From: Escherichia coli O157:H7
GTDB taxonomy: Bacteria > Pseudomonadota > Gammaproteobacteria > Enterobacterales > Enterobacteriaceae
Reading direction: 5' to 3' (one strand)
Assembly: GCF_013167455.1 (NCBI RefSeq)
Contig: NZ_CP038328.1
DNA length: 64,000 nt
This document shows, piece after piece, positions 55,901 to 61,900 of this stretch. The first letter of the stretch is position 1, and every line of letters begins with the position of its first letter. The position numbers were made by a program.

Positions 55901-58900
55901 GACGTGGCAGCCAGACTACAATATTTGAGAAAGCTGCGCCGGGTAACGCCCTGACGCCGCATGGCCTGGTAAAATGTTTCCTCGTTATTCATATCGCACG
56001 TCTCTTCTCCTTGCGACACCGGCAGGACACCGGGCGCTTATGGTCGGCAAGCGACGTCCCTGTAGCAAGGCAAACCATCGCTTCACGTGAGATGCTGAAA
56101 ACGAAAGCTCATCCTTCTGCACTGGCGCACGTCGCCAGAAAGTATTGTTAATAAAGCGTAGTGAAACTTTTGCACAAAACAATACAAACTGTGTGGATTT
56201 ATCTTTTAGCGATAAAAATGGACCTATTTTTCTTTTTGCCGGGCGGTGGGATGTTTAGCCAGTTGCTAAACGAGTAAAAGAGAAGGAATTTATGGTGATG
56301 AAATGATCAATCTGCTTTTATTTCACGCTATCAATGCACTTTTGGCTGTTTTTCAGGCAAACAAACAGATTAGGGGTTTACACGCCGCATCGGGATGTTT
56401 ATAGTGCGCGTCATTCCGGAAGTGTGGCCGAGCGGTTGAAGGCACCGGTCTTGAAAACCGGCGACCCGAAAGGGTTCCAGAGTTCGAATCTCTGCGCTTC
56501 CGCCAAATAATCAAGGGGTTACCAAATGGTAGCCCCTTTGCTTTTTTGGCTCTTGGTATAAACTTGGTATACCAATTGGTATATTTTTATTCGGATGAGA
56601 TTATCGGTCATGAGCGGAACCTCAGGTTCCTCGTCTGATGCCGCTCTTGCAACACGTTACGCTGCCGAGTATTTTTGTAAAACATGGACTGCTCCAGGCC
56701 TGAACCAGGCAGAAGGATACAAAGCCATCTCAGATCTGTCGCATCACTATTTTCGTGCAGAAGGCTCTAGCCCTCCCCAATCTTTTTTGTGACACCCTGT
56801 TTCACTGAACATGAAGACACTCACCTTGTCCCTGATATTCATTAGCATCATCCTGATTATTTAACTTCTCTATTTAGGGAAGCCCGTCTGATACAAAGCT
56901 TCTATTCCTCGTTAAATATTCTCCATTCTGGCGCCAAGCCCTATCTATAGCTGATTGAAAACAACTCTAAAAACGTAATAATATCAAATAGTTTATTCCT
57001 ACAGCCGATCATTTTGAGTAAAATATTGACGAGAATTTCACAAAAGGTAGATTTCATGTAAACGGATAAATAAGACTATCCAATAAAGCTCTTATAAGGT
57101 TATCTATATGATAAATAGCATTAATTCTTTTTTTCCGGCCTTCCTCGCAGTATATCAAGTGCTATACGCAGCAGTACCTTCACTGTCTCGCAGCACAAAA
57201 GCACACCTAACACGGTAAAAACCAGCTCACCTTTTTCTCCCAGCAACAGTCCTGCCAGTGCAACAACTATTTTTAAGGTAAAAAATTCTTATACAGAATC
57301 AGGACTTCAACGTCCCACATCTTATACTCAGTCAAGTATAGAAAAAAACGCTTTACATCGGCCTCTACCTGATGTAGCTCAGCGTCTGGTGCAGCATCTT
57401 GCAGAGCATGGCATTCAACCAGCCCGGAGTATGGCTGAACATATTCCTCCGGCACCTAACTGGCCTGCGCCACCACCGCCAGTACAAAATGAACAATCAA
57501 GACCTCTGCCTGATGTGGCTCAGCGTCTGATGCAGCATCTTGCAGAGCATGGCATTCAACCAGCCCGGAATATGGCTGAACATATTCCTCCGGCACCTAA
57601 CTGGCCTGCGCCAACGCCGCCAGTACAAAATGAACAATCAAGACCTTTGCCTGATGTGGCTCAGCGTCTGATGCAGCATCTTGCAGAGCATGGCATTCAA
57701 CCAGCCCGGAATATGGCTGAACATATTCCTCCGGCACCTAACTGGCCTGCGCCAACGCCGCCAGTACAAAATGAACAATCAAGACCTTTGCCTGATGTGG
57801 CTCAGCGTCTGATGCAGCATCTTGCAGAGCATGGCATTCAACCAGCCCGGAATATGGCTGAACATATTCCTCCGGCACCTAACTGGCCTGCGCCAACGCC
57901 GCCAGTACAAAATGAACAATCAAGACCTTTGCCTGATGTGGCTCAGCGTCTGATGCAGCATCTTGCAGAGCATGGCATTCAACCAGCCCGGAATATGGCT
58001 GAACATATTCCTCCGGCACCTAACTGGCCTGCGCCAACGCCGCCAGTACAAAATGAACAATCAAGACCTTTGCCTGATGTGGCTCAGCGTCTGATGCAGC
58101 ATCTTGCAGAGCATGGCATTAATACATCTAAGCGCTCGTGATTATAATATAATTACCTATATTAGCTCTGACCTGACAGTTACCGGTTATTTATACAGGT
58201 ATCTGTCAGATTACATCTAACCAACAAAAAACCGGAGCCGGACTCCGGTTTTGTGAAGCTGTCGGCTATTTCATTCCGCCAATATTTTCCCACCTCCCGT
58301 CAGCACGCAGAATTTGCAGCGGTCTTACCACACACTGTATCTGCTTTTTATCTGCATCCAGTATCACCACCTGCGTGATTACCCCGTCCTGCTCCGGAAT
58401 AATGCCATTCTCATCTGACTCCAGGATGTCTGCCGGCCCCAGTCGCAGTTGTACTGTAAGCGACTGCCCGTGTTCACAGTCATCATGCTTTCCGCAACCG
58501 CACAGACGCTGCATAATTTTTTTTAATATGTTCATGTCATTCTCCTGTTCTGCCTGTATCACTGCCCACTTCATCCAGCCCCTTAACATCCTGCCACGGC
58601 CCGTCACCAAACCTGACCTGCAAATGCTGAAAAAAAACCTGAACCCGTGTGGCATCTTTGGGGGCAAGAAAGGTCAGTCCGGTGATGAGCGCACCATCTG
58701 TACCCGGGAACCAGCCATGGCTGTTTGTCTCAATAATGCTCGCCGGCCCCAGACGAAAACGGATTTGTGTCTCCCCCGGGTCGCCCTTCGGTCCCTGAGG
58801 TCCGGTTGCCCCCACCGGGCCAGCCGCACCTGTTTCTCCTTTCGGTCCCTGTGGGCCTGCCGGGCCTGCTGCCCCGGTGTCTCCCTTTGGACCCTGTGGA

Positions 58901-61900
58901 CCTGCATTTCCCGTCAGACCGGTCTCTCCCCGCTCTCCCCTGTCACCTTTCGGCCCCTGCGGGCCTGCCGGACCAGCATCACCTGCCGGTCCCCGTTCGC
59001 CGGTTGCCCCTGCCGGGCCGGTGTCGCCACGCTCTCCTTTATCTCCCTTCGGCCCCTGAGGACCCGCGGGACCCGGTTCCCCCTTTGGCCCGGGAGGTCC
59101 CACCACGGTGGGGATTCGGTTTACGGCTTCTTCCGCCGCTATCCTGCTTTGTTCCGCTGACTGTGCGCTTTCTGCTGACTCCCGGGCTTTTTCTGTTGCG
59201 GTCGTTGCATCCCTGGCTGCATTACCGGCTGCACTTTCTGCCGTCTTTCTTGACAATTCAGCTTCTGCTGCACTTTGTGATGACTCACTGGCTTTTTGAG
59301 CGGCCGCAGAAGCCGAGGACGAGGACGCCTCCTCTGACTGCTTTGCAGCGGCTGCACTTTCTGCCGCCTGCCGGGCTGACTCCGATGCATCCCCTGCTGA
59401 AGTGTCAGCATTTGCCGCGCTCTCTTCTGCCTGACTGGCTGATATGCCGGCATTCCTCGCGGACGTCTCCGCCTCTCCGGCATTCTTCTTCGCCTCCTCA
59501 GCGTGACGCGCCGCTTCTTCCACCATCAGTTCAAAACGACGCAGTGCCTCCGGCCGGACGTCATCCTCCGACATGGCACCGAGAAAATCATTCAGCGTCC
59601 CCGGTTGAGAATCTTCATACACGGTGATGGTCCCGGCATGTGACGGCGGGAACCCTTCCACCAACAGAATAACGCTGTACTGACCGTACTCAACGTCCAT
59701 GCTGTAACGACCGGCTTCATCCGGATTTTCAGAGGCCACCGTGTTCACCACCACCGTGGCGCTGTTACGTCTGGCTTTCAGTTGAATGGTGCAGTTCTCT
59801 ACCGGTTTTCCTGTGCCGTCTTTCAGTACACCTGAAATCTTTACTGCCATATTCACCCCACAAAAAAGCCCGCCTGAACCGGCGGGCTGTCATAACACTG
59901 TGTTACCTGGCTAATCAGAATTTATAGCCGACACCCACGATGAAGCCGTCAGTGCGCCAGTCGCCACTGCCGGAGCCTTCATAAGCAATATCAATGGCCA
60001 CGGATTCGATCGGGTTAAACTGCACGCCAGCTCCCCACGCCAGAGACGTGTTGCTGTGGCGACCGTCATCACTTCCGGTCAGCACATCATGCGTTTTCCC
60101 CTTGTTGTCAGTTACGCGGAGATAATCCCCGGAGAAAGTCGACACACGGCTGTAAGCCACACCCGCCATCGCATACGCGCTGAACCATTCATTCACGCGT
60201 ACAGACGGCCCCGCCATCACGCTGAACCAGCGGTTACGCACGGAATCTTCATGCCAGCGGGTATCGCTGTAGCGCGTTTTTTGCTCATCCTCAGCATTGG
60301 CATAACTGAAGGACGTAATCAGCCCCAGCGCGTCCATAAACTCATAACGGTATTTCACGTTAATCCCGTTCAGATCATCACTACCGGGAACGTTCGTCGA
60401 GGCATGGAGATACCCCGCGCTCAGCGTTGACTGATGTTCAGACGCCCATGCAGGCGCACCGGATACGGCCAGACAAATGGCTGCGGACAAAATGGCGGCA
60501 TAAAGTTTACGCATAATTACCTCTCGCTTTTCTGCAATAAAAAAGGCGCCATTTCTGGCGCCCGTATATGGGTTATAAAATTCAGCTGATACTGATGCCT
60601 GCGGTGGCTTTCTTCATCACCACAACCAGCAAATCGCTGATACTTGCTGTGGGATACCAGTTATTCACCAGCCATGCTGACACCGAAAACTCCAGCGTCA
60701 TGTGACCGTGACCGGCAGGCATATCAATAACGCCACTGTAAATCAGCGTATTATCCAGCGCGGTACGGTTATAAATTTCAGCACCGTTTTTCCGCACTAT
60801 CAGACGGCATGAGGAGTAAATATCAGTATGCTCTCTCTCATGTTTAGCGCCGCTGAATGCCACCGCCGGAATAACAATCTGCCGGTCAAACGGCTGATCG
60901 TCATAAACCCTGACGGTAATGGTCCCTGATGGCCACCGCTCCGGTGCACGGGAATCCCGGGGGAAAGCTTTGCCCACTGTTTTAACGAGATCGCCTTCAA
61001 TCTGGTTCGCGGACAGTTTTCCCAGAACCCGACAGTTCTCGTTAATCGTGACGTTGTTGAGCGTCCCGGAATTCGCATTCACGTTACCGCTGATATCAGC
61101 ATTTCTTGCGGTCAGCCTGCCCTCCGGCGTCAGGGAAAACGTCGGGGGATTGGCGGATGACGTGATACTCACCGCAAACAGTCGTTTCAGGAACACATCG
61201 TTCATGAACAACTGATTCCCCTGCGCCACAAATAACGGCGTGGTGTTGCCGTCCTCCGGGTTAATCATCGCAATACGGTCAGCCAGCAGCAGTATGTTGC
61301 TCAGGGGCTGGCCATCAGTATCCTCAATCCCCGCTCCAATACCGGCAACATAGGGTATGCCATTTTTTGTTTTCTGTACCTTCAGCATGTAAAGTGCAGC
61401 AAGGTCATCATTTGTGTCCTTCTGCACGCGCTGTATCTGCTGTATGATGGCGCTCTGGTCCTCCAGCGTTTTACTGACCGTCTGTGTGATTTCATTGCGG
61501 GTTTCGGTGATGGAGGTCTTCATCTCCGCCATCTCATCCGCAAGCTGGCTGTTGTCTATCAGCTCCCACAGCCCCTGAGCCAGATGCAGTTTTCCTATTT
61601 TTTCCCGAAACAGCCCCAGATACCCTTCTGCATCATTGCTGGCCCGGCCACTGGCTTCCACAAAAGCAGATTTCCCCACCAGGTTGACGCTGCGCACGTA
61701 AAACCAGAAATCCTTCCCGGGCTTAATGTGCGGGCCGGATACACTCCACTGACTGCCGGTCCCCAGATAACGGGCAGAGGTTTCCACCTGAGATGTATCT
61801 GCGATTTTTGTCTCCGAAAACCAGAACTCAAACTGTACCGTCGGGTCATACACCGCAAGACGCGGGACCGCTGTTATCTGAAAATAGCCCGGTGTCAGCT

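Follow-up and report, generated by a model that had tools for sequence, protein, structure and literature searches.

The 64,000-nucleotide stretch of Escherichia coli O157:H7 DNA analyzed here (the window; contig NZ_CP038328.1) contains, at the late (tail) operon's distal end in a lambdoid prophage that is certainly of the Sp4/CP-933M type, a side tail fiber gene with a collagen-like shaft (58537..59850) and, directly behind it, a small open reading frame (ORF) of 89 aa (58266..58535); both genes and all their parts lie on the minus strand. The small ORF is a free-standing version of PfC, the domain that forms the fiber tip. It is genetically locked to PfC-tipped fibers and occupies the position that tfa has in phage lambda, and a homologue of it is made during phage production. 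The 2.45-kb stretch holding the two genes matches several E. coli O157:H7 chromosomes letter for letter (100%) and has 98.6% DNA identity to the Sakai prophage Sp4, in which the fiber is ECs1123 and the small ORF is ECs1124, there labelled 'hypothetical'.

The fiber and the small gene behind it

The fiber gene encodes 437 aa plus a stop codon from the RefSeq ATG at 59850 (an alternative GTG start at 59856 gives a 439-aa ORF, 58537-59856) and matches PF08400, PF01391 and PF06820. Its N-terminal domain PfN (aa 1-135; 59446..59850; PF08400 over aa 3-135, E=9e-69) is a collar/anchor domain of the lambda Stf type, with 91% identity to lambda Stf/orf-401 over aa 1-110; the likeness to lambda stops at about aa 110. 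The N-terminus also matches that of the Ur-lambda side fiber, the collar domain of which has been solved (PDB 9e7m, E=4e-52). The collar role is described in PMC12617516. Whereas the collar is homologous to lambda gpStfN, the window fiber has collagen and PfC in place of the distal shaft and receptor-binding region of lambda Stf, and the gene behind it is not tfa. PfN is followed by PCoil, an Ala/Ser/Glu-rich coiled-coil segment read from the sequence (aa 136-249; 59104..59445), and by a collagen-like shaft, in which we counted 37 unbroken Gly-X-Y triplets (aa 251-361; 58768..59100; PF01391) and which strongly matches collagen chains in the PDB. The chain ends in PfC, the C-terminal tip and trimerization domain (aa 363-426; 58573..58764; PF06820 over aa 365-428), and an acidic tail of 11 residues in the translation (58540..58572), before the TGA stop at 58537-58539.

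This order of PfN, PCoil, a single collagen domain and PfC is the EPclA architecture, and the window fiber is the published EPclA protein, described by Ghosh et al. (2012; PMC3368898) as 437 aa long and built from PfN, PCoil, a collagen domain of 111 aa and PfC, with ECs1123 as its Sp4 copy. According to this paper, the recombinant Sakai protein is a dumbbell-shaped trimer by size-exclusion chromatography with multi-angle laser light scattering, circular dichroism (CD) and electron microscopy, its collagen domain is a true triple helix by CD with a melting temperature of 42 C, PCoil is experimentally a trimerization module, and isolated PfC is a trimer by itself that renucleates the collagen helix after melting. 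We assume that the trimeric state and the PfC-nucleated triple helix carry over from this near-identical protein to the window fiber. The passages of PMC3368898 examined, in which the words 'downstream' and 'chaperone' are absent, contain no mention of the small PfC gene.

The small ORF, which corresponds to Sp5 ORF68 and phi24B 'gp59' and matches PHROG 576 over 89 of its 89 residues, starts a single nucleotide past the fiber stop (TGAcATG) and has its own Shine-Dalgarno (SD) sequence, AGGAG (58542..58546), inside the last fiber codons and 6 nt 5' of the ATG. A search for promoter-like sites between the fiber and the small ORF gave a single weak match (9/12), which overlaps the start, and no other. 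The small-ORF frame is open for 44 codons 5' of its ATG (58536-58667), across the last 44 fiber codons, and forms a 133-aa ORF from a TTG. Its product begins with a predicted amphipathic helix (aa 3-12, ILKKIMQRLC; 58500..58529; modeled with AlphaFold2 (AF2) at a predicted local distance difference test score (pLDDT) of ~69), and the motif M-x-I-[LF]-K-K of this N-terminus is retained in a divergent homologue (P0128). The helix is followed by a Cys/His-rich, polymorphic linker (aa 13-27, GCGKHDDCEHGQSLT; 58455..58499) that is predicted to be disordered, with pLDDT <50 at aa 14-22, and by the PfC beta-domain (aa 28-89; 58269..58454).

In the Cys/His cluster of the linker (LCGCGKHDDCEH), C12 is constant, position 14 is C, H or Y, position 20 is C or R, and position 22 is H, N or D; P0128 has HCLFGC at this place. 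Since both C14 and C20 vary, the possibility that the cluster forms a metal site or an interchain disulfide knot stays speculation. The small-ORF sequence, which has no hydrophobic stretch, gives no sign of a signal peptide, and a lipoprotein or secreted protein was ruled out by the absence of a hydrophobic h-region ahead of the 'LCGC' motif. The N-terminal 'CGCGKH' was considered as a degenerate collagen remnant and rejected, Gly-X-Y periodicity being absent.

In a pairwise BLASTP alignment of fiber residues 365-427 with small-ORF residues 28-88, 35% of positions are identical and 60% positive (E=2e-11), and PF06820 (Phage_fiber_C) covers both proteins over model positions 1-64 of 64, with 126.4 bits for the fiber (E=5.6e-37) and 122.7 bits for the small ORF (E=7.7e-36), membership being defined as a score above the gathering score of 25 bits across the whole 64-position model. 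The similarity is far beyond chance and marks the small ORF as a paralog of the fiber tip domain. The AF2 monomer of the small protein, built with a 24-sequence alignment, has a mean pLDDT of 79.8 and consists of a helix at aa 3-12, disorder at aa 14-22 and a six-stranded beta-domain, the PfC, at pLDDT ~90. When the predicted PfC fold was compared with BFVD, the best 11 matches were all phage tail fiber proteins, and the best fold matches in the PDB by two methods were the distal tip of the phage Mu tail fiber S and related tips (5yvq, 8ju3). Although the single matches are weak, they agree in identifying the modeled domain as a fold of the fiber-tip type. No solved structure of PfC was found in the PDB by sequence or by profile search, and hhalign of the small ORF against Mu S indicated no remote homology.

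The initial annotation, made from the window sequence, had described an stf homologue in which a collagen-like shaft replaces the lambda distal region, followed directly by an 89-aa ORF with its own SD that re-encodes the fiber's C-terminal domain, and each of these points is borne out by the results above. Its collagen-like run also stands, and its count of about 30 triplets was too low.

Distribution, selection and expression of the small gene

The free-standing form belongs to a narrow family: we found 167 relatives of the small ORF among 5.8 billion proteins, in E. coli, E. albertii and Citrobacter rodentium; the best 120 of these 167 small-type PfC matches are all at most 131 aa long, and none of the 120 is a full-length fiber. 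A profile of both PfC types gave 89 hits among 1.84 billion representative proteins, and three multi-repeat matches to it (P0136, P0149, P0166) were judged spurious, being compositionally similar repeat proteins. Within E. coli, however, it is plentiful wherever it occurs: of 5426 complete genomes, 697 carry the small gene, and the median carrier has 10 copies of it. IMG/VR holds 262 small-ORF stretches and 267 fiber-PfC stretches. A putative phage fiber of 565 aa (P0158; L172 3001-4698, metagenome contig SRR17035117_85161) is made of four tandem units and then collagen triplets; the C-terminal halves of the units resemble the second half of PfC (VVVLDAD...GILQVRRADGTWxEIPAxKG), a likeness which suggests that the C-terminal hairpin of PfC is a more widely used module beside collagen helices.

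The small ORF keeps close company with the tip domain. In 70 of the 74 PfC fiber loci with enough downstream sequence, an intact small ORF begins exactly 1 nt past the fiber stop, and the remaining four copies are frameshifted or disrupted. In the loci sampled, the small ORF was never found away from a PfC-tipped fiber or its remnant, and in prophage remnants the two genes decay jointly. The module of collagen domain, PfC and small ORF, at >90% identity, ends both the 437-aa lambda-type siphovirus fiber and a ~645-aa fiber of short-tailed Shiga toxin (Stx) phages: Sp5 (ORF67/ORF68) and phi24B (gp61/'gp59') have the same fiber end and 89-aa PfC-only ORF as the window, but there the fiber is the 645-aa EPclB on another N-terminal anchor. 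A third, divergent pair (L163 1-974; GCA_008387015.1) consists of a 212-aa non-collagen fiber with a divergent PfC, the N-terminal 125 aa of which resemble myovirus tail fibers (Yersinia phage fEV-1, Vibrio phages) with a weak hit to carbohydrate-binding module family CBM5/12, and a 79-aa free PfC protein that overlaps it by 14 nt. Since the small ORF is linked to PfC across three fiber architectures, its travelling companion is the tip domain, rather than the anchor or the collagen shaft. The placement parallels that of lambda, in which the order J-lom-stf-tfa, with start/stop coupling, corresponds to J-lom-fiber-small ORF in the window.

Pooled Nei-Gojobori estimates over unique alleles gave a ratio of nonsynonymous to synonymous divergence (dN/dS) of 0.077 for the PfC part of the small ORF, at a proportion of synonymous differences (pS) of 0.138, and of 0.31 for its codons 1-27, compared with 0.22 for the fiber PfC and 0.25 for the fiber PfN. 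The small ORF thus encodes a real protein on which purifying selection is strong, and in its PfC part tighter than on the fiber tip it resembles. The fiber PfC is multi-allelic at aa 372 (G/A/M), 373 (N/S/R), 380 (N/H/Y), 385 (D/G), 398 (D/A), 404 (R/Q) and 408 (F/L/M/V) and otherwise invariant, its variants being shuffled into many combinations; these positions would fit exposed, possibly receptor-contacting sites. Variation in the small ORF is found mainly in the N-terminal linker, at sites 14, 19, 20 and 22-25.

Evidence for translation comes from phi24B, for which a preprint spreadsheet of the virion proteome lists two tryptic peptides unique to the small ORF, VITQVVILDADKK and ADGTWENIGGMK. 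Both map to an ORF labelled 'gp59' that ends 271 nt past the fiber stop, and the small-ORF homologue is therefore translated during phage production. In the accompanying cryo-electron microscopy work (phi24B preprint, 2026) only the fiber N-terminus is resolved, and the function of the lateral fibers is among its open questions. ECs0845, which we confirmed to be the small ORF of Sp3, and ECs2940 are reported to be ~5-fold up in spinach root exudate (PMC4940412); array probes probably cross-hybridize among paralogs. A literature search by small-ORF locus tag found no functional report.

Prophage context

On the minus strand, the prophage genes run in the order J, lom, side tail fiber and small ORF, and then come type III effector cargo and the serT attachment site. 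The ORF list and the annotation of matching genomes place gpJ, the central tail fiber and host specificity protein, at 60582..63989 (minus strand) and lom, encoding an Ail/Lom outer-membrane protein, upstream of the fiber gene at 59915..60514 (minus strand). One terminator-like hairpin (59867..59888, minus strand) lies between lom and the fiber gene and a second at 60544-60563 (minus strand), so that lom is flanked on both sides in the classic 'moron' arrangement. A further terminator-like hairpin with a T-run (58228..58252, minus strand) ends the fiber/small-ORF unit and faces a convergent tccP2 pseudogene. This TccP2/EspF(U)-like gene, frameshifted in the RefSeq annotation, contains at 57368-58120 (plus strand) 5.3 tandem copies of a 141-bp unit at 99% identity, which encode the 47-aa proline-rich repeats of a TccP2/EspF(U)-like effector of the type III secretion system (T3SS). 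A short espV effector fragment (~56600-56800) is situated just within the prophage end, and the tRNA-Ser(UGA) gene serT (56418-56505, plus strand), adjoining hyaA, marks the attachment site.

In several prophages the small ORF is the last phage gene ahead of exchangeable effector cargo. The small ORF of Sakai Sp3 (ECs_0845; L173 9177-9446) is followed by nleB2-1, nleC, nleH1-1 and nleD, and NleG and SopA-like effector genes lie downstream of the divergent L163 pair. RefSeq names the fiber in a 100%-identical genome 'prophage tail fiber N-terminal domain-containing protein', and the RefSeq/PGAP name of the small ORF is 'phage tail fiber C-terminal domain-containing protein'.

Candidate roles of the free-standing tip domain

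We propose, at about even confidence, that the small protein is a non-essential, late-expressed accessory of the fiber's distal end that either aids registration and assembly of the tip or stays on it, and that it probably forms its own trimer through PfC. In the mechanism that we envisage, the Stf-type collar domain would anchor the fiber to the tail tip, the trimeric coiled coil and the 37-triplet collagen helix would form the shaft, and PfC would trimerize the fiber chains, nucleate the collagen helix and form the distal knob. The small ORF, translated separately and coupled to the fiber stop, would supply a diverged PfC preceded by an amphipathic helix and a flexible linker rich in Cys and His; its product would help the three tip domains to reach the correct register in assembly or remain on the finished tip, and would not act as a recombination donor. 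The initial annotation had offered a tip-derived assembly factor as one of two readings, which is plausible from the position and translational coupling of the gene and is weakened by the trimerization of the fiber without the small protein and by the non-essential Sp5 homologue.

These last two observations are among several that weigh against our proposal. According to PMC3368898, both recombinant EPclA and isolated PfC form trimers in E. coli when the small protein is absent. Mondal et al. (2016; PMC5155283) list Sp5 ORF68, a 'phage fiber C-terminus domain' protein, as a non-essential late gene, while the fiber gene ORF67 is essential, and an obligatory chaperone role is excluded on this ground. 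The phi24B peptides are low-level, and the gradient-purified preparation also had proteins that the authors treat as contaminants, so that association of the small protein with the virion is not established. There is no sign of matched co-variation between fiber-tip and small-ORF alleles, which reassort freely, although this test is weak because the two genes are physically linked. Lastly, when three copies of the small ORF were strung together with GGS linkers and modeled by AF2, the pLDDT was 29, and the model says nothing for or against a trimer.

Tentatively, and with rather less conviction, we entertain the broader idea that the free-standing PfC represents an undescribed class of fiber accessory, a paralog of the tip that replaces Tfa and belongs to a two-gene module moving between siphovirus, podovirus and a third fiber scaffold. 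Such a protein could act by transient co-assembly with, or templating of, the nascent tips before the collagen zips, or its trimer could dock on the knob as the true distal end of the fiber.

The main rival to these proposals, which we regard as unlikely, is an autonomous function unrelated to the fiber, for which the tip fold would have been co-opted, for example in a moron-type or host-directed role. The place of the small ORF in several prophages, where variable T3SS-effector cargo follows it with no further phage gene between them, would suit such a role, as would its dispensability for phage growth, its strong conservation with no co-variation with the fiber tip, and the reported rise of ECs0845 in root exudate, which occurred without deliberate induction (PMC4940412). 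However, the small ORF has no promoter-like site of its own beyond the weak match noted above, start/stop coupling or overlap with the fiber is kept even in the divergent L163 pair, the gene was never found apart from a PfC-tipped fiber or its remnant in the sample, and the protein has no signal peptide.

An obligatory chaperone, needed for folding or trimerization of the tip as lambda Tfa and Mu U are, is very improbable. Lambda Tfa, Mu U and P2 G (Caudo_TAP) are, like the small ORF, encoded directly after the fiber gene and have an identity that tracks the type of tip, and they bind the distal ends of their fibers; the window gene, immediately 3' of the fiber gene and coupled to its stop through an SD-preceded start, reproduces both the tfa position and its translational coupling, with the same strict linkage to tip type. 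Unlike these proteins, the small ORF has no sequence similarity to the family, is a paralog of the tip itself, and was dispensable for trimerization or infectivity in published tests. No match to a Tfa family was found for it in Pfam, where PF06820 is the sole hit at E<=1, in PHROG, or in NCBIfam, which gave no hit at all; its PHROG matches are 576 and 13758 ('tail fiber protein') and 1658, the function of which is not labelled, and its hhalign probability is 0.15% with lambda Tfa and 0.33% with Mu U. The initial annotation was right to set the small ORF apart from Tfa-type chaperones, and the published data on trimerization (PMC3368898) and on Sp5 (PMC5155283) largely refute the chaperone reading.

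The other proposal of the initial annotation, a cassette for alternative receptor-binding tips, is not supported. Here the small ORF would be a stored tip that is occasionally recombined onto the fiber to change receptor specificity, an idea encouraged by the presence of a tip paralog directly behind the fiber gene and already published for Sp5 ORF68, which Mondal et al. (2016; PMC5155283) proposed as a possible reservoir for fiber variation. The inversion systems Mu G and P1 C and the diversity-generating retroelements (DGRs; BPP-1 mtd with its variable and template repeats, VR/TR) likewise have a second tip-coding copy beside the fiber gene. Mu G and P1 C need an invertase and inverted segments with crossover sites at their borders, and a DGR needs a reverse transcriptase and a near-identical template with adenine-specific differences. 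In contrast, the two copies in the window are on the same strand in direct orientation and have no inverted repeat with them, the annotation of the flanks examined (4 kb) shows neither an invertase nor a reverse transcriptase, and the downstream copy is translated and constrained; the locus has the features of neither a DGR nor an invertible segment nor a silent cassette. When aligned by codon, the two PfC-coding segments are 51% identical in DNA and nowhere agree over more than 11 nt in a row, far below the needs of homologous recombination between tip and small ORF. The low dN/dS, the SD, the start/stop coupling and the detected peptides speak for use as a protein, the polymorphisms of the fiber tip are single residues and not tracts taken from the small ORF, and no tip-swapped fiber occurs among the best 120 of the 167 matches.

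Two database proteins nevertheless look like such recombinants: in P0059, collagen triplets are joined to a small-ORF-type PfC at a 'GPA' microhomology, and P0113 is the reciprocal kind of chimera. P0059, however, lies right where a 3.3-kb draft contig begins, and comparable junk fusions exist to Lom, J, CII and NleG. The fusions seen (P0059, P0113, P0008, P0034, P0071, P0076, P0090) combine small-ORF parts with collagen triplets, fiber PfC, or tape-measure, CII, J, Lom or NleG fragments, and are signs either of frequent illegitimate rearrangement among near-identical prophages or of assembly error among them. Altogether we consider the cassette highly doubtful.

A programmed frameshift or read-through, by which the small ORF would be added to the fiber to give a minor, longer form with a second tip, has little probability. 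The 44 open codons upstream of the small-ORF ATG would permit it, and because of this open frame the phi24B authors tested frameshift fusions, including hypothetical fiber/small-ORF products in their proteome search database. A shift within those codons, however, would destroy the fiber's own PfC, Mondal et al. found no frameshift signal (PMC5155283), the small ORF has its own SD and ATG, and both phi24B peptides are internal to it, with no junction peptide in the part of the data examined. A small ORF without function, left behind when the fiber 3' end was partially duplicated, has next to no probability: the paralogy implies an origin by duplication, but the selection analysis, with ample synonymous diversity, refutes loss of function, ~95% of copies are intact, and the gene is conserved in the divergent lineage. 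The evidence thus excludes a functionless duplicate, an obligatory Tfa-like chaperone and, to the extent that sequence permits a judgment, a recombination cassette. It leaves a constrained protein of late expression, locked and translationally coupled to PfC-tipped fibers, which phage growth in the laboratory does not require.

In animal collagens and in T4 fibritin, non-collagenous trimerization domains (the NC1 domains and C-propeptides, and the foldon, respectively) nucleate collagen helices. We know of no such system in which a second, free-standing nucleation domain is encoded beside the collagen gene. For the collagen shaft of the fiber, PfC plays the comparable nucleating role, according to PMC3368898.

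The relationship of the two domains was already known from Pfam and the RefSeq annotation, the fiber from the 2012 paper and the cassette hypothesis from its publication in 2016. What is new here is the purifying selection on the small ORF, its linkage in 70 of 74 loci over three architectures, the 51% DNA identity of the two PfC copies, the lack of similarity to Tfa, the tip-like predicted fold and the attribution of two phi24B peptides. Fibers of this kind sit on most lambdoid and Stx-converting prophages of enterohemorrhagic E. coli, and a conserved, tightly selected partner of their tip would be an obvious handle on how these fibers are built or what they bind, which bears on the spread of Shiga-toxin phages.

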